A DNA stretch of 62,643 nt, filler included, from Globobulimina sp. (taxonomy: Eukaryota): NCBI GenBank assembly GCA_003354225.1. It is 23 parts of 23 records of this genome, joined end to end, with 100 filler letters (N's around TTAATTAATTAA, not from the genome) between each part and the next. Parts side by side here need not be neighbours in the genome. Positions count along the whole stretch, not along the records: positions 21,832 to 24,459 come from PIVH01005631.1; 22 more parts are not named here. One strand, given 5' to 3'. A program made the translations under genes and the position numbers. The notes beneath the pieces were generated by a model. The model did no database searches. It worked only from the letters and a program-made list of their open reading frames with translations, and was not told the origin of the DNA. Of this stretch, positions 1 through 24,559 are shown in pieces. Position 1 is the stretch's first letter, and every line of letters starts with the position of its first letter.

Positions 1-268
1 CCATGCATCTTAATGATAGTGATGGGGTAGCCTTGTCTGGATACTATATATCGGTGTTAAATAATTTCATCCCATTTAAAGAAATGATACCTATTTGGTG
101 CTTACAATGCACATTATCCGTCTTGTTTATTTATAGCTATCTCAAAGCATCATCTCTCTCACACAGTGAAGTGCCTTGATGTATATTTCCGTTCTTGTAA
201 TATTTTAATTCACTGCTCACATTTTTGTTAGTTGTCAGAAACATACTCTTTTTCTGGAATTTTCTCAG

Positions 269-1723
269 ATGATTAATAGTTTAAGAAGTATATTGCAGCG
301 CGCAACAAAGACAACAGCAAGAATTATCAAACCACGCCGCGTTCATCAAATTCAAATAACGCATCCTCGTCGGTTCAATGCCTATAAAGTGGCGGGTTAT
401 TCATTTGGTGCGTTAACTGCACTTATTTTAGGACCCATTGTATTATGGCCGATTGCCGATGTTTGGTTATTACCTACAATCATATCACAAACCTTATCAC
501 AAACTCCATCCACTCAATGTAGCAATATATGGGGGAGAGATTTTGAAATCTCTCAACTTGAATATATGATGCAATCACAACCAAATAATATCTGGATATT
601 GAATGGCAATACAAACTGTGGCAAAACTGCATTTGTTAAAAAATTATTATCATTAAATAGCGGAATAATATATGTTGATTTGCGGCATTTCTTTGATGGA
701 AACGCTTTTGTGTTTGAAATGATTGATTGTTTGTATAATTCTGCAGAAAACAACAAATCAATAATAAACAAATTAGTTGGTTGCTATGTAAAATTGTTTT
801 GTTTTGTAACTACAATAATTGCACAATCTGACCAGCACATAACTGCCATGTTATATTTTCATGCATTATTAAATCATTTAAAAGCCGGCTGCACGAAATA
901 TAATAAAAAAAATAAACAATTCCCTTTGATTGTATTTGATCATTTTGAAGCATTACAATCTGCCGCAAATTACACAAAAGAAACGCAAAATCGCGAAATG
1001 TTGTCATTTATAATATATTCCATCTCGCAATTTGCCACATCAATATGTCACGATTTGGGTTTGTCGCATGTTTTATTTGCAGGTCATGACTTATCACATG
1101 ATTTGGATGCATCACTAGCGGCAGCACCTCGTAGTTCCATAACAAAACATTGCGAATATTGGCATATTGCTGGAATAAATAAAGAAATTGCAATAAAATA
1201 TATTATTAAAGAGTTTGAGAAGAAACTAAATGATGACAATAGTAAACATAGACAAGAATTGAATGGAATGGTATTGAAATTAATTAATTGTATCGGAACA
1301 AAAGCATTTGATATCTCTGTTGCATTGAAAGCAGTGACATCAAATATTATTGACAATAATAATGAGAGTACGAATGGAATAAAAGAATTGGATAAAAATA
1401 TCATACATTATATTAAACATTATAATGAATTACAAACACTGAAACTAAATAAAATGATTAAAAATAAAGATAATATTAAAAAATTGCAAACATTTATTAC
1501 AAATAATAATGACAGTCTAATGGAATGGAATCAGGCATTAAACCATTTTGACAATGATCGAGATTTAATGGTGAACTTAATAAATAATAATATTTTATCA
1601 CGGAAACACGGTAAAAAACTATCAAGCAATTTAATAGAATTAATGGAAATGAAGTTATTAGGAAAAGATGATAATGTTTATGTTGGCATTGTGGAATGTT
1701 GTGATTCTTTAATACGGAACTAA
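269..1723 (+). CDS. P-loop NTPase-domain protein with basic N-terminus (possible mitochondrial presequence) and one TM segment
   Basis: 484-aa ORF; Walker A-like LNGNTNCGKT, IIYVDLR strand, Walker B-like LIVFDHFE; Arg/Thr/Ser-rich N-terminus, then hydrophobic GYSFGALTALILGPIVLWP. Confidence 0.65.
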   Translation: MINSLRSILQRATKTTARIIKPRRVHQIQITHPRRFNAYKVAGYSFGALTALILGPIVLWPIADVWLLPTIISQTLSQTPSTQCSNIWGRDFEISQLEYMMQSQPNNIWILNGNTNCGKTAFVKKLLSLNSGIIYVDLRHFFDGNAFVFEMIDCLYNSAENNKSIINKLVGCYVKLFCFVTTIIAQSDQHITAMLYFHALLNHLKAGCTKYNKKNKQFPLIVFDHFEALQSAANYTKETQNREMLSFIIYSISQFATSICHDLGLSHVLFAGHDLSHDLDASLAAAPRSSITKHCEYWHIAGINKEIAIKYIIKEFEKKLNDDNSKHRQELNGMVLKLINCIGTKAFDISVALKAVTSNIIDNNNESTNGIKELDKNIIHYIKHYNELQTLKLNKMIKNKDNIKKLQTFITNNNDSLMEWNQALNHFDNDRDLMVNLINNNILSRKHGKKLSSNLIELMEMKLLGKDDNVYVGIVECCDSLIRN

Positions 1724-5691: not shown

Positions 5692-6075
5692 ATGACATCG
5701 ACAAAGAAACGAACGACGCGTAACAGCAACCGACATAATACAAACAATAATAACGAATCCGATGATGGCATTCATATACAAACCTTCCCCGAATTGATAT
5801 TCTTACAATCCACGTTGAGGAAATTTACCAAACCATGGATAAGGTCTGGATTAGATACGTTTCGCTGGATTTTAGATGTGCGAAATTATCGAGATGGCCA
5901 TCCAGATCATCCTCATACGATGTTGGCCAAAGAAATATTAAATTCCATACCTACGGGAAGCCGCCAGCTATATTTTGATCGCTGCAATCTTACGGATTCA
6001 GATCGCTTCGACTTCCGAACATCCCAACCTCTGAACGCCCAAACTTCTGAACCTCTCAACCTCTCAAACCTCTGA
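5692..6075 (+). CDS. Hypothetical protein (possibly degraded or element-derived)
   Basis: 127-aa ATG ORF with Asn-rich N-terminus; no recognisable motif. Confidence 0.3.
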   Translation: MTSTKKRTTRNSNRHNTNNNNESDDGIHIQTFPELIFLQSTLRKFTKPWIRSGLDTFRWILDVRNYRDGHPDHPHTMLAKEILNSIPTGSRQLYFDRCNLTDSDRFDFRTSQPLNAQTSEPLNLSNL

Positions 6076-16374: not shown

Positions 16375-16795
16375 ACATAAAAAATTGAAAGAGGCGGAAA
16401 GACGGAGAATTGAAACAGAACAAAAATTAGAAACAGAAGAAAGAGAACGAAGGAAAATAGAAACAGAGAAAGAAGCAATGCAACAAAAATTAAATCAATT
16501 TGAGAGAGAAGAAAAAGAAGAGGAGAAAACTGAGATTATTTTGGAGAATTTACTGAAAAGTTGGAAATTAGGACAATATATAAATATCTTAATAAGAGAA
16601 CAAGGCTATGATGATATTGATGATTGGAATGATTTGACTCTTTTAGAATTACAAAGTATGGGCTTTAAACCTGGCCATTCCAAGAAATTTAAACGAAAAA
16701 CTAATGAATATTTTATGCAAAAAAGAAATCGTAATATTCCCTCTTCGAATGATGATGAAAGTGTTGAAGGCCATGATGCTACTTTGTATATATAA
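16375..16795 (+). CDS. 3' fragment: coiled coil followed by C-terminal SAM domain
   Basis: E/R/K-rich repeats, then LLKSWKLGQYINILIREQGYDDIDDWNDLTLLELQSMGFKPGHSKKF. Confidence 0.8.
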
Positions 16796-19622: not shown

Positions 19623-21731
19623 CTACATAATAGAGGAAGTTTCAACAGTATTCGGTGGATCTTTTTTCACCACCACTATATCCACGCCCTTTTTAACTTC
19701 AATAATTTGCTTTGCAGCATCTTCTTCATTTCCATCATGATCCGGACGAAGGCAAATATAACCAGCTGCAATACACATTACTCCTAAAACAGTAATTAAA
19801 ACGCCAAGCAATGCATATTTGACATATGGATCCAAATCACGAAAGGTTTTAAACGCACCATTTGCTGCATATGCATTCTCTGACGATGATGCTGAATCTA
19901 ACGCATATGGTTTAAGCGCACTCTTGTCATTAAATAACGCATTCTCTGCTGATGAATCTAAAGTGGTTGCAATCAAATCACACAATGCACCATCACCGGA
20001 CGTCCATGAACTCACAATTAAATCTGGACATTTTGGTACTATTTGGCCAATTACATCAGCATCACATCTTTTAATTACACCAATGCACAATGTATTACCC
20101 GCTGTATCCTGCACCAAAACCCCTGTTTTCTTTCGAAATGTGCCATATTCTCCAGCTGCAAGTTCTGCTGTCACTGTTATAGTATCTCCACTCGACGCCG
20201 CAAATGCATTGCCATTGTTGTATGTGGCACCTCCCAGTTTGCCTTTTTTCTTATAATTTCTACGAAATGTAACCGACGCATCTTGAGTTCCAGTGTACTG
20301 CACAGCAATTTGCACCATACCATCCTCGCAATCACAACTTCTATAAATAGTATCCTCAACTATGTTATTTGGACAATCAGCATCAAAAAAGAAGTTAAAA
20401 CATGGCAATCCATCCACACTGCACCTTTGTTCACCAGATGATGTGTTATAAATTACCACACCATCTGCGGTATCAATGGTGGTAATATTAAATGTATCGA
20501 TATTCTCCGCACTCACACTAACATTTCCGAAACAAATCTCAAACCCATTTGCGTAGTTACTATAATTGTGTGACACTATCAGTATACAAATATGCTAAAA
20601 AGTATACAAATATAATATACCTCAATTCAACACAAACTCCCAATTCATTGTCCACCTCACAGCCTTCCGCTCGCAACACATTGGTCCCCTCTTCGAAGGT
20701 AGCGTCGGTTATTACGCCCGAAATGTCCGAAACATTGAGATTCGAAGTATTAAAATCTGTGAAACTGTTCTCACATAAAGGCAAAAATATAATTACTTTA
20801 CTTTCGATGCAATCTTCGTCTCTTTCGAGGCTCGTTATTTCGTACCCGACACATGTCTCAATTAAAAAATCATTGTAAGCGTCAGCATTGCTCAATGTAT
20901 AATATTTCCGGCCATATTCAATACCACTGTCTGATGACGCAGCGGCAGAATCTGACTGTGTCTCATACCATAGATCTTGTTTCGAGTCAAGAGAGAGTCC
21001 GCATCGATCTTTAAACCATTCGGAGTATGAATAATATCCATCGCCAGAATCATCAGAGGCAAAACATCTGTCACTCCCCAATAATGATCGACGTCTATCA
21101 CCTGAATCTGAGCCACATTCTAAAGAAATACATTGGTCGCCACAGCAACATACGCCAGTTCCGCAATAACCAAAAGTGTTTCCTTCATAACACGCTTGAT
21201 TTGATGCGTCTGCACACGATTCATAACAACCACATTGTAAACCACGTTGTAAGCCCCATTGATAACAATTTGGTACACATTTCTTATTTGTATACCATGA
21301 CTGAGGTACAACATCACCATCCCACGAATCTGAACCTGAACCAGATGTTAAATATCTTCTCCTTCTGCTACCTGAACTACCTGAACTATCTTCACTTGCT
21401 GCACTGGCCTCATTTGCTTCATTTGCCTCACTGGCTTCACTGCCTTCACTGCCTCCACTTGCTTCATTTGCTTCACTTTCTTCAACTGGGCACGGAGCAA
21501 TAGAGATGTTGCCAATACTCTCTAACGTAATATTAAATGAACATTCATCACAATCATCAGTTGTGGGTGTTGCAGTCGTTGGAGTTCCAGTCGTTGGTGA
21601 TGCAGTGGTTGGAGTTCCTGTCGTTGGTGCTGCAGTCGTTGGTGATGCAGTGGTTGGAGTTCCAGTCGTTGGTGATGCAGTGGTTGGAGTTCCAGTCGTT
21701 GGTGATGCAGTGGTTGGAGTTCCTGTCGTTG
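19623..21731 (-). CDS. Type I surface protein with Pro/Thr repeats, Cys-rich domains and C-terminal TM; 5'-truncated; intron 20560-20620
   Basis: Minus frame open from the contig end through (PTTASPTTGT)n, an EAS-rich linker and Cys-rich blocks into ORF 20560; intron joins ORF 19623; TM YALLGVLITVLGVMCIAAGYICL. Confidence 0.8.
21557..21731 (-). repeat. Coding 15/30-bp tandem repeat (PTTAS/PTTGT)
   Basis: Repeated GTTGGTGATGCAGTGGTTGGAGTTCCAGTC. Confidence 0.95.
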
Positions 21732-21912
21732 NNNNNNNNNNNNNNNNNNNNNNNNNNNNNNNNNNNNNNNNNNNNTTAATTAATTAANNNNNNNNNNNNN
21801 NNNNNNNNNNNNNNNNNNNNNNNNNNNNNNNTAATGGCGGATAAATGCGAGAGATTGAACATGAATGATGTGACAAAAAATAGCAGCGCAGAGCGGGAGC
21901 TCCGGATATTTA

Positions 21913-23217
21913 ATGATATCGATGATAATAAACACGCCGCACTCAGTGGATACGGCTACGCCGGAAAGCTCCGTATCGGTGGTGTCTGTAAACAGCCCCT
22001 CTCCGGATATCAATAATTATGCGAGCGAGGTGCAAAAAACGATCATCATTGACAATGGTTCGGAGACTATTAAAATTGGCTATGGTTCGAGCGAGATGTC
22101 AGAGTCACACAAACCGTCCAAGAAATTCCATTCGATCATCGGCAGTCCCAAACATAGCTCGTTCAGTACGTACGCCATGAACGAGAAGGATATCTTTATC
22201 GGCGATGAAGCGTACAACAAATCGAGCATATTGAACATAAAAAATGTAATCTCCAGAGGGCAGGTAACGGACTGGGACGCGATGGAAAAACTGTGGGACT
22301 ATACATTCTTTAACAAATTGGGTATCAACAGGAATATGTCCAATATTAACATATTATTGACCGAAGGCGTAGGCGAACACGAAAAGAGTGAGCGGGAGAA
22401 AGCGGTGCAAACAATGTTTGAGAATTATTCGATAAATTCAATGTTTTTGCTGAATGAAGGAGTGTTGTCGTTGTACGGCGTGGGGAAAATCACAGGAACG
22501 GTGTTGGGCATTGGCTATGGCGTAACTTATACATCGTCGATATTCGAAGGAATGTGTTTGCCCGGTTCTGTAATACGGATAAATTCCTCTGGCTATGACA
22601 TAACAAAGTATTTACAGCAGATACTGTCAGATAAATATTCGCAAATATTGAGGAACAGCAAACACTCGATTTTTAAAGATATGAAGCAGAAATATTGCTT
22701 TGTGGCGGATAATTTTCACGAATCGTTGAAATTGAATGCAAATTCGTATAAAAAATATAAGTTACCCGATGGGCAAAGTATACGTATTGGAAATGAAAGG
22801 TTTCGAGCCACGGAGCAGTTATTTGGCGGCTTTATTAATTTGAATAATGAAGAAATGTCGAGAGGGACGAAAAAGTTGTTTAATAAACATGCAGCGTTTG
22901 ATAAATCGGGCGTGCATCATATGGTTAATACGTGTATTAATTTGGTGTCTGATAAGGATTTGAGACGAGAGTTATATTCAAATATTGTGTTAAGCGGTGG
23001 TTCGACGCTGTTTAAAGGATTAACGAATAGATTACAAAATGAAATGGTTAAATTAACAAATGTTCCGATTAATATTATTGCCAATGAGAAACGAAAATAT
23101 TTGGCGTGGATTGGTGGTTCAATTGTTAGTTCGTTGTCAAATTATATGGATAATTTTATTCAAAAAAGTGAATATGAAGAGCAAGGACCGAGAATTGTTC
23201 ATATAAAATGTCCTTAA
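21913..23217 (+). CDS. Divergent actin / actin-related protein with Ser-rich N-terminal extension
   Basis: IIIDNGSETIKIG, FIGDEA, VTDWDAMEKLW, YKLPDGQSIRIGNERFRATE, LYSNIVLSGGSTLF, WIGGSIVSSL, EYEEQGPRIVHIKCP. Confidence 0.93.
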   Translation: MISMIINTPHSVDTATPESSVSVVSVNSPSPDINNYASEVQKTIIIDNGSETIKIGYGSSEMSESHKPSKKFHSIIGSPKHSSFSTYAMNEKDIFIGDEAYNKSSILNIKNVISRGQVTDWDAMEKLWDYTFFNKLGINRNMSNINILLTEGVGEHEKSEREKAVQTMFENYSINSMFLLNEGVLSLYGVGKITGTVLGIGYGVTYTSSIFEGMCLPGSVIRINSSGYDITKYLQQILSDKYSQILRNSKHSIFKDMKQKYCFVADNFHESLKLNANSYKKYKLPDGQSIRIGNERFRATEQLFGGFINLNNEEMSRGTKKLFNKHAAFDKSGVHHMVNTCINLVSDKDLRRELYSNIVLSGGSTLFKGLTNRLQNEMVKLTNVPINIIANEKRKYLAWIGGSIVSSLSNYMDNFIQKSEYEEQGPRIVHIKCP

Positions 23218-23475
23218 ATTATTATATTTGTTCATCCTTTTTTTTATTTTAGTATTTTTTCTTTTTTATGTTCTGTATAATTTTAATTATTGTTGTACGT
23301 ATTTTGTGGATTTGGTGTGCGTTGATAAATAAATCGACCCAACAAAACTCAAAAAAGTGAATATTGTTATTTGAGTTTAATATTTCACCCTTTTTTCGAA
23401 AAACTGTTTTGTACATTAAAATTGAAAGTGAAATCAACTTTGCGTCATCTTATATATATGACATACAAAAGCAAT

Positions 23476-24459
23476 TTACATAGATTGTGCTTGCCAATAT
23501 TGTGTAACTTGTCTCACGAACTTCTTTGCCTGTCCTTCCTTGAAACCCATACTCTGCAAATCATGCAATGTCAAGTCCTGCCAAACTGCAACATCCTCAT
23601 AGCCCAATTCCTGTATCAATTTCCCCGAATACTGATCCAACTCCCATTCTTTTAACAACTTTACCGCCTCAGCCAAACCGCCTCCACTCTGAACCTCATT
23701 CACATCCTTTATCTCATACACTTTCTTTCCAACATGTTTCCGATTGTGTTTATCCGCATAATTATACGCCAAATTCACGCCATCCTGTTCAAACAACCTC
23801 GCTTTTTTATACACCATATGTGATATTGTCTTATATTGATAAAATAGTTTATGATGCAATTGTATCTCACACACAACCTTCGTGCCGGGACAGTATATAT
23901 TCACCAACAAATCTCTATACCCAAACGGCATTTCCTTCGCATTAAATCGATCCTTACAGCGCAATATGCCCACACTGCCTCGCCGCCGCGCTAAGCGTTC
24001 AATCATTGCCCAGCATTTGTACAAATCATTGCAGCTCTCAAACAGCAGCGAGCAACGCAACACATCTGTGAATTGTTTGAAGCCATCGTTACTTTTCATG
24101 CCATAGACATAGAATGCTTTGTAAAAAGCGCGCTCAATGTTTTTGCCCTTAGCCCCACCGCATTGGTTCAAGAAACCAAACGCTTTGCTACAATGCGCTG
24201 ACAACATTTGTAGCCAACCCCTAAACTCTCCAATGTGTAAGTTCGTGCCGGCAAATATTAGCTCTATAAATGAGTCCATCTCAGACACCGGTTTTGGTTT
24301 GTTTTCATATTCGACGATATTGCGCGCAAACATTCGCCGCGCATTCTGCTGTTCCTGTCTTTGCTGTTCACCATATTGAGAATTAAACAAGTTCTCCACC
24401 AAAATAATATTATTCAAAAAGGTATTGATTTCATGCAAATTAATGATTTGTTCAAGTAA
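23476..24459 (-). CDS. RelA/SpoT-like nucleotidyltransferase (alarmone-synthetase fold) with C-terminal SAM domain; 5'-truncated
   Basis: Ordered motifs KGKNIERAFYK / FTDVLRCSLL / KDRF..PFGYRDLLVNI / CEIQL parallel the Rel synthetase motifs; SAM LLKEWELDQY..LQSMGFKEGQAKKF. Confidence 0.8.
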   Translation of the reverse strand, partial: LLEQIINLHEINTFLNNIILVENLFNSQYGEQQRQEQQNARRMFARNIVEYENKPKPVSEMDSFIELIFAGTNLHIGEFRGWLQMLSAHCSKAFGFLNQCGGAKGKNIERAFYKAFYVYGMKSNDGFKQFTDVLRCSLLFESCNDLYKCWAMIERLARRRGSVGILRCKDRFNAKEMPFGYRDLLVNIYCPGTKVVCEIQLHHKLFYQYKTISHMVYKKARLFEQDGVNLAYNYADKHNRKHVGKKVYEIKDVNEVQSGGGLAEAVKLLKEWELDQYSGKLIQELGYEDVAVWQDLTLHDLQSMGFKEGQAKKFVRQVTQYWQAQSM

Positions 24460-24559
24460 NNNNNNNNNNNNNNNNNNNNNNNNNNNNNNNNNNNNNNNNN
24501 NNNTTAATTAATTAANNNNNNNNNNNNNNNNNNNNNNNNNNNNNNNNNNNNNNNNNNNN

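Follow-up and report, generated by a model that had tools for sequence, protein, structure and literature searches.

In eukaryotes, the main RelA/SpoT homologs (RSH) are Mesh1 and the plant RSH proteins, alongside a few unplaced "divRel" sequences (PMC3153485; statements that cite PMC identifiers refer to the accessible parts of those papers). Because divRel was catalogued in 2011, the idea of an RSH synthetase in eukaryotes is not new in itself. One plant protein, Rsh4, has gained EF-hands (PMC3153485), and a later report describes ppGpp in animals (PMC7666150). RelA/SpoT-like domains have also been listed among the domains of polymorphic toxins and effectors, with two copies in XopAD (Zhang et al. 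2012, PMC3482391), and one RSH-type enzyme, SaEAS, is able to produce (p)ppApp as well as (p)ppGpp (PMC12691689). Here we describe a Rel-like protein with a C-terminal SAM domain (P0001) that is encoded in a 62,643-nucleotide stretch of DNA (the window) from Globobulimina sp. (assembly GCA_003354225.1). A sequence-only reading had proposed that it joins a RelA/SpoT-like synthetase domain to a SAM domain. Our computational analysis supports a synthetase-type domain of the RelA/SpoT superfamily, by sequence profiles, by fold and by residue conservation. Our claim reaches the fold, the motifs and the family; an alarmone or toxin function, and a switch operated by the SAM domain, are put forward as hypotheses.

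The AlphaFold2 model of P0001 has a mean predicted local distance difference test score (pLDDT) of 86.5 and a predicted TM-score of 0.74. The core is predicted to form a central mixed β-sheet framed by helices, as in RSH synthetase (SYNTH) domains. When we compared the model to the PDB with Foldseek, there were 30 matches at E ≤ 1e-3, and all among the matches listed were RSH synthetases; the best was RelP (6ex0, E 2.8e-5, target-normalised TM-score 0.55). In structure comparisons, Rel from Bacillus subtilis scored 13.5 (136 residues, root-mean-square deviation (rmsd) 3.0 Å), RelQ and B. subtilis RelP each scored 12.5 (158 residues for RelP), SaEAS scored 11.6 and Tas1 scored 10.4. CapRel scored 10.4–10.8 with a high rmsd (4.0–5.5 Å). 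The Rel synthetase fold, whose absence the sequence-only reading would have taken as a refutation, is retained in the predicted structure.

Sequence similarity to characterized RSH proteins is remote. There are close homologs: 26 of them match P0001 at E 6e-106 to 2e-33, with 36–66% identity, and a 27th match (P0028) covers just the SAM part. A profile of the core, run against 1.84 billion cluster representatives, found 1682 of these at E ≤ 1e-3, 202 at E ≤ 1e-10 and 79 at E ≤ 1e-30. A scan of P0001 against NCBIfam found nothing, and a single-sequence phmmer search against the sequences in the PDB found Caskin SAM domains only. Among the PDB sequences, only profiles that include remote relatives reached RSH entries. 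These profiles (A3 and A4) combine the close family with short remote members that are 21–32% identical to P0001. With A3 and A4, respectively, YwaC (the RelP of B. subtilis) matched at E 4.6e-8 and 1.4e-8, Tas1 at 9.6e-5 and 5.1e-7, and RelP from Staphylococcus aureus at 0.02 and 2e-3. RelSeq matched A4 at 8.3e-3 and was not listed with A3. Of the 11 entries that A3 matched at E ≤ 10, all but one prolyl hydroxylase (E 0.058) belong to the RSH synthetases; with A4, 11 of 11 matches at E ≤ 1 are RSH. By way of these broad profiles, the family shows significant sequence similarity to known members of the RSH superfamily. The sequence-only reading had suggested a profile search against RelA_SpoT (PF04607) and the toxSAS families as a check, and the answer is divided. 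The broad profiles do reach YwaC, Tas1 and RelSeq, but Pfam's own model stays below its threshold (25.4 bits is the best score among the remote relatives), and neither A3 nor A4 matched CapRel or FaRel2 among the PDB sequences.

The putative active-site residues are conserved. The positions of the motifs and domains are in Table 1.

Table 1. Features of the Rel-like/SAM gene and of the other gene on its contig, with positions along the window
Feature	Position	Strand	Details
Rel-like/SAM coding sequence, 5'-truncated	23476..24459	-	327 codons + TAA; residues 1-327 of P0001 = 24459..23479, TAA stop at 23476-23478; no intron visible
End of N-terminal helical extension, residues 1-61	24277..24459	-	FLNNIILVENLFN...; family-specific
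RSH-type synthetase (SYNTH)-like nucleotidyltransferase core, residues 62-250	23710..24276	-	
Motif 1, K104-G-K106-N-I-E-R110-A-F-Y-K114 (KGKNIERAFYK)	24118-24150	-	basic helix
Motif 2, T-D132-V-L-R135-C-S137 (TDVLRCS)	24049-24069	-	putative Mg2+-binding catalytic Asp and invariant Arg
Motif 3, K169-D-R171-F...G-Y181-R-D183-L-L-V-N187 (KDRF..GYRDLLVN)	23899-23955	-	KD motif and G-loop-like Tyr
Motif 4, E198-I-Q200-L-H-H (EIQLHH)	23851-23868	-	aligns to YwaC 'EIQIRT'
Motif 5, H214-M-V-Y217-K-K-A-R221 (HMVYKKAR)	23797-23820	-	fifth motif, beyond the four of the sequence-only reading
C-terminal SAM domain, residues 260-327	23479..23682	-	starts at GGLAEAVKLLKEW; low-confidence linker at residues 252-260
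Actin-family gene, same contig	21874..23217	+	Pfam Actin, E 1.9e-90

The first four motifs translate exactly as had been described and are in the Rel order; the 26 homologs and the profile matches to RSH proteins indicate more than chance. Motif 1 aligns to 'KAPIKSRERAMQK' of Tas1. D132 in motif 2 aligns with the Asp of 'HDIAGVR' in YwaC and of 'KDLARNT' in Tas1. Motif 3 aligns to 'KDYIQTPKPNGYRSLH' of YwaC, with KDRF on 'KDYI' and GYRD on 'GYRS', and motif 5 aligns to 'EHKIYYK' of YwaC and to 'HKLYEEQR' of SaSAS. Across the 27 sequences of the close family, Y147, G164, K169, D170, R171, G180, Y181, R182, D183, L185 and N187 are invariant, and conservation reaches at least 90% at K106, R110, K114, D132 and R135. 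The 26 sequences of A3 extend down to 21% identity; D132, R135, E198 and Q200 do not vary among them, and at least 90% conservation is seen at K106, R110, K114, S137, K169, R171, D183, N187, H214 and Y217. So the two residues that the sequence-only reading took as putatively catalytic, an Asp (D132) and a Glu (E198), are present, and they are conserved among the paralogs.

What these residues might do can be judged from FaRel2. In that enzyme, R64, K66, S70, K74 and R77 hold the triphosphate of the donor and D90 holds Mg2+; R64 and R95 sandwich the adenine of the donor, which E145 and Q147 contact; and a Tyr that is conserved in RSH proteins contacts the base of the acceptor (PMC11782079). A catalytic role for the equivalent Asp is stated for D90 of FaRel2 (PMC11782079) and for D121 of SaEAS (PMC12691689). 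By alignment, P0001 has a candidate Mg2+-binding Asp and an E-x-Q strand (D132, E198 and Q200), and Y181 lies on the Tyr of GYRS and would be the G-loop Tyr that contacts the acceptor base. From R64, K66, S70 and K74 of FaRel2, we infer that motif 1 corresponds to the basic helix with which RSH enzymes bind the triphosphate of the donor ATP. Of the pattern RxKxxxSxxxK, the family keeps K106, R110 and K114, but the position of the first Arg is variable. After the Asp, it has the invariant R135 at D+3 and a Ser at D+5, as Tas1 does in the alignments. Tas1 itself is enzymatically active (PMC11782079, PMC12691689). Overall, the active site appears intact, and its donor half appears to be Tas1-like.

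The gene is not broken; it lacks its 5' end because its contig stops at an artificial spacer (position 24460). The frame aligns to its homologs without gaps over 96–99% of its length. The alignment begins at residue 59 of P0005 and at residue 84 of P0002, so about 58–83 N-terminal residues are missing from P0001. Contigs from public sequencing runs continue past position 24459 by about 996 nt (X1) and 1121 nt (X2), so the 5' end exists and can be recovered. The source of the frame is probably a nuclear gene from a foraminifer-like protist, of which it would make up the 3' four-fifths.

Full-length homologs have 380–406 amino acids, and the additional part, about 60–85 residues, is just N-terminal helices. 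In the model of P0001, the helices at residues 8–28 and 31–44 have pLDDT above 90. The model of P0005, a full-length homolog, has long helices (2–36, 39–62, 66–86 and 89–102) before the core (122–302), which is followed by a disordered linker and a SAM domain (320–379). The long RSH proteins have an HD hydrolase domain with TGS and ACT domains. We found no Pfam match to any of these in P0001, nor are they among the 25 most common families in its 27 relatives, which agrees with what the sequence-only reading saw in the part present. This is a synthetase-only protein. The full-length product would be a cytosolic protein of about 385–410 residues in three parts: the helical extension, the SYNTH domain and the SAM domain.

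The family of P0001 is large and has expanded in Foraminifera. All of the named close relatives are foraminiferal, and the closest (50–55% identity) are transcripts from four genera. The named sequences are from Nonionella stella (P0002, P0003, P0005, P0009, P0030, P0034, P0036, P0043, P0046, P0065, P0167 and P0179), Bolivina argentea (P0016, P0031 and P0173), Ammonia sp. (P0029) and Elphidium margaritaceum (P0178). The other members that we looked up are metagenome or Logan proteins. In the paralogs, the Rel-like domain has various partners: TLDc (P0030), WW (P0036 and P0167, and by precomputed Pfam results P0008 and P0017 too), C1 or ZZ zinc fingers (P0003), C1 with ZZ and FYVE (P0173), or a kinesin motor with EF-hands (P0043 and P0065, which are two different proteins; a form with kinesin, EF-hands and SAM is also recorded). 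There are also choline-transporter-like regions (P0058, P0061 and P0066) and a lectin-like region (P0037). Some of these fusions may be artefacts of the gene models. As a group, the partners look more like signaling and scaffolding modules than like classical immunity.

More remote members include two proteins from Guillardia theta with two copies of the domain each (P0118 and P0132; UniRef names the latter a "RelA/SpoT domain-containing protein"), and others that are fused to ankyrin, helicase, LRR or TPR modules. Among bacterial relatives, just one is named: P0165/P0176, from cyanobacterial metagenome-assembled genomes, which has DUF4157/eCIS_core (E 6.2e-11) and then a Rel-like domain at its C-terminus. 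A search for loci based on P0176 found 78. In 2 of these (L001 and L002) the C-terminus is Rel-like, and the rest share just the N-terminal part with DUF4157. At positions 6001–10766 of L001, which is from a cyanobacterial metagenome-assembled genome, there are tandem DUF4157/eCIS-core proteins: one C-terminus is Rel-like, one is lipase-like (with GHSLGG) and the third is cut by the end of the contig. This array has the pattern of exchangeable toxin cassettes. Between the array proteins is an open reading frame (ORF) of 161 amino acids that might be an immunity gene. As leads only, the nearest clusters in the ESM Atlas are labeled as diatom or Pseudomonadota, and there is one Actinomycetota cluster in which 34% of members have PF04607.

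The C-terminal domain certainly has the SAM fold, which bears out the SAM domain that the sequence-only reading placed after the synthetase. It has five helices and is supported by sequence profiles, even though Pfam's SAM_TNK is below its cutoff in P0001 (E 0.0081; 16.6 vs. 25 bits). A search for homologs with the SAM region only (residues 255–327) gave 4 candidates, none of them significant. A complex prediction with two copies of this region scored 0.00; it was run without an alignment and is not evidence either way. That polymerization of the SAM domain would switch on the enzyme is an analogy.

The same subtype of SAM domain is found at the end of two other proteins. P0028, which is from a metagenome contig outside the window, has a caspase domain (Peptidase_C14, E 1.8e-19) and then a terminal SAM domain with 52% identity. 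Within the window, at 16376–16792 (+ strand), is the C-terminal end of another protein, which is cut by the start of its contig. It has a Glu/Lys-rich coiled coil and then a SAM domain (Pfam SAM_1, E 1.2e-5) that is 57% identical to residues 268–321 of P0001. The recurrence of this subtype suggests, from sequence similarity, a shared interaction module.

Overall, we think it fairly probable that P0001 is encoded by a nuclear gene of a foraminifer-like organism and is a cytosolic protein with a helical extension, an intact-looking SYNTH domain and a SAM domain, whose pyrophosphokinase is probably of toxin descent. Going by its sequence, it would most likely be an active ATP-dependent pyrophosphokinase that acts on purine nucleotides in the cytosol and is placed by its SAM domain. 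The enzyme would bind ATP-Mg2+ as the donor and would move the β,γ-pyrophosphate of ATP to the 3'-OH of a purine nucleotide, which would yield (p)ppApp and/or (p)ppGpp. (The 3' end of an RNA would be a less likely acceptor.) The SAM domain, or in the paralogs WW, C1/ZZ/FYVE, TLDc or kinesin with EF-hands, would place or assemble the enzyme in eukaryotic signaling scaffolds. The N-terminal half has the layout of Tas1/Apk1 (P-I-K...R...K and D-x-x-R) and the bacterial relative is of a toxin type (with DUF4157), so the family was probably recruited from a bacterial effector or toxin domain. Several observations weigh against this explanation. RelA_SpoT (PF04607) is below its gathering score in P0001 (E 0.015; 16 vs. 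27 bits), and just 7 of the 27 family members have a match to it, at E 1.9e-4 at best. Profiles of the close family (A1 and A2) matched SAM or coiled-coil entries among the PDB sequences and no RSH entry. The equivalents of R64 and R95 in FaRel2 are not conserved (the position two before K106 is variable, and D+5 is Ser137), so the donor must be bound differently than in canonical Rel. The missing 5' end may encode a targeting signal in this copy. Finally, among the public sequencing-run contigs that we compared, none spans the interval between the actin-family gene and the Rel-like gene (at 23388–23390).

The similarity to Tas1 could also mean that P0001 is a death or defense effector: a (p)ppApp synthetase like Tas1/Apk1 that is assembled by its SAM domain and would drain ATP or poison purine metabolism, in parallel to SARM1. 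The N-terminal half of the active site is closest to Tas1 (E 9.6e-5 and 5.1e-7), the bacterial relative is a cargo-type DUF4157/eCIS-core protein in a polymorphic array, some remote members have LRR, TPR, ankyrin or helicase fusions, and the SAM subtype recurs (at 52% identity) at the end of the caspase-domain protein P0028. Toxin modules of this type are known, and XopAD has two copies (PMC3482391), as do several remote eukaryotic members. Nevertheless, we consider an effector unlikely: the C-terminal half scores best with RelP, which is not toxic; WW, C1/ZZ/FYVE, TLDc and kinesin with EF-hands, the partners in close paralogs, are atypical for immune sensors; and no immunity or antitoxin partner is identifiable (the sole linked neighbor is an actin-family gene). 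A pyrophosphokinase directed at RNA is a poorer candidate still. A long helical extension precedes the core, and in FaRel2 an N-terminal helical extension anchors the tRNA (PMC11782079), but CapRel aligns with a high rmsd (4.0–5.5 Å), and the profiles match neither CapRel nor FaRel2. The departures from the canonical motifs (no Arg of RxK, DxxR instead of DxxGxR and GYRD instead of GYRS) and the failure to reach Pfam's threshold are what might be seen in a catalytically dead scaffold, kept just for nucleotide binding or protein assembly. Pseudoenzymes usually lose their catalytic residues, and here those are what is retained: paralogs, and relatives down to 21% identity, show little or no variation in the putative Mg2+ Asp, the ExQ pair, the basic helix or the G-loop Tyr, which makes a pseudoenzyme very improbable. 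We put least weight on bacterial or organellar contamination or a chimeric assembly in place of a protist's nuclear gene, which we find hardly credible. The assembly is highly fragmented (2.63 kb contigs), remote bacterial relatives exist, and no public contig that we compared joins the actin gene to the Rel-like gene. Against contamination, the closest relatives are foraminiferal transcripts, the Rel-like domain is fused to a typically eukaryotic module, its composition and codon usage are like those of other ORFs in the window, and the stretch with the Rel-like gene is found in contigs from two studies, whose runs carry two different organism labels. The sequence-only reading's assignment to a eukaryote also fits the actin gene on the same contig and the eukaryotic genes on other contigs, and there is no plastid-type sign.

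The window consists of 23 contigs (2627–2629 bp each, about 2.63 kb, and apparently ordered by size) that are joined by 22 spacers. Each spacer is N44-TTAATTAATTAA-N44, as at 24460–24559 (44 runs of 44 N in total), and has stops in all six frames. Because the spacers are artificial, gene neighborhood across them is meaningless, and only positions 21832–24459 are physically linked to the Rel-like/SAM gene. On that contig, the actin-family gene is convergent with the Rel-like gene, with 258 bp of 24% GC between them. The linkage of the two genes comes from this assembly only, because no public contig that we compared bridges the interval. Runs X6 and X8, which are RNA only by guess, have both genes at 90–95% identity and zero coverage over 23240–23490. 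At best this hints weakly at separate transcripts, and the gap proves nothing; among the sequencing runs that carry this stretch, no run is listed as RNA. In the actin-family gene, the contigs from X6 and X8 (90–95% identical) replace 8 letters at 21918–21927 by 40 different ones and have a 21-nt insertion after 23058 that is absent from the near-identical X1 and X2. Both are length variants that keep the reading frame, and they come from a related strain or a paralog.

The Rel-like gene has 41% GC (47% at third codon positions). Its codon usage correlates at 0.66 with three other ORFs from the window, and the actin gene's correlates at 0.72 with two of them. Other contigs in the window encode adaptin, PI3K, Hsp70, MIF4G, VPS13-N, SANT/DAMP1 and reverse transcriptase proteins. 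The last is an ORF that fills its contig (49110–51734, + strand; RVT_1, E 3.5e-28) and is probably from a retroelement. A long ORF at 20560–21731 (- strand) has tandem Thr/Pro repeats like TTGTPTTASP, followed by a region that is Cys-rich and then acidic and rich in Ser and Glu; its product resembles mucin-like proteins that are secreted or of a wall type. At 209–1720 (+ strand) is an ORF with a match to ATPase_2 (PF01637) that is just below threshold (32.9 vs. 33.2 bits); this is an AAA/STAND-like type of ATPase, known for the most part from archaea.

We searched the literature for this family, mostly outside subscription papers and supplementary tables, and saw neither the foraminiferal family nor its SAM fusion described, nor any paper that joins foraminifera and ppGpp. 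(The tables of PMC3482391, PMC3153485 and PMC7229694 may list eukaryotic members.) Both appear to be undescribed in the literature we searched, and some remote members have been annotated automatically. If our explanation is correct, then a large family that Pfam does not detect, with an intact-looking SYNTH domain and typical eukaryotic signaling modules, gives a concrete candidate, open to testing, for alarmone-type chemistry in the cytosol of protists, and a further case of a bacterial toxin domain that became a eukaryotic signaling or effector enzyme. A broader possibility, which we offer as speculation and think doubtful, is that Foraminifera, and more distantly cryptophytes or other marine protists, run a cytosolic, non-plastid (p)ppApp/(p)ppGpp system whose synthetases derive from Tas1-like toxin domains and are wired into scaffolds with SAM, WW, C1/FYVE, or EF-hands and kinesin. 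The SAM subtype that is shared with the caspase protein suggests SAM-mediated assemblies that would link nucleotide signaling with regulated cell death, or with local control over the pseudopodial network and its microtubules.

Among known systems, the divRel proteins of Dictyostelium, Aspergillus, Gibberella and diatoms (Atkinson et al. 2011, PMC3153485) are also synthetase-only RSH relatives in non-plant eukaryotes, with neither a function nor a hydrolase partner established. They differ in having a single domain, in being found with RSH HMMs and in coming from other lineages (we set them apart by their description, not by sequence), and the accessible part of that survey does not mention Foraminifera or fusions to SAM, WW or kinesin. 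The Ca2+-activated Rsh4/CRSH of plants combines a synthetase with EF-hands, as do the foraminiferal paralogs P0043 and P0065. However, the plant proteins are long RSHs that are targeted to plastids, while P0001 has a SAM domain and no EF-hands. For SARM1 (SAM with a TIR NADase) and tankyrase (a SAM-PARP filament), the enzymatic domains are unrelated, and the resemblance would be one of architecture only.

The closest comparisons are to bacterial enzymes. Like RelP/SAS2 (YwaC, 6fgk; S. aureus, 6ewz) and RelQ/SAS1, P0001 is synthetase-only and has the motif order KD..GYRx..EIQ..H..YK, and YwaC is the best profile match (1.4e-8). In contrast to them, it has DxxR instead of DxxGxR, does not conserve the first Arg of RxK, has just 13–17% identity, scores below the cutoff of PF04607, is from a eukaryotic host, and has additional N-terminal helices and a SAM domain. 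Tas1/Apk1, the (p)ppApp synthetase of the type VI secretion system of Pseudomonas aeruginosa (6ox6), differs in that it is a toxin which bacteria secrete and which has an immunity protein, whereas P0001 is eukaryotic and intracellular-looking, and has a SAM domain and an N-terminal helical extension. Against Tas1 the C-terminal half gave no score. The likeness is one of motif and fold only. Within those limits, neither protein has a hydrolase domain, and the N-terminal halves match motif for motif (PIK..R..K... and D-x-x-R; E 5.1e-7).

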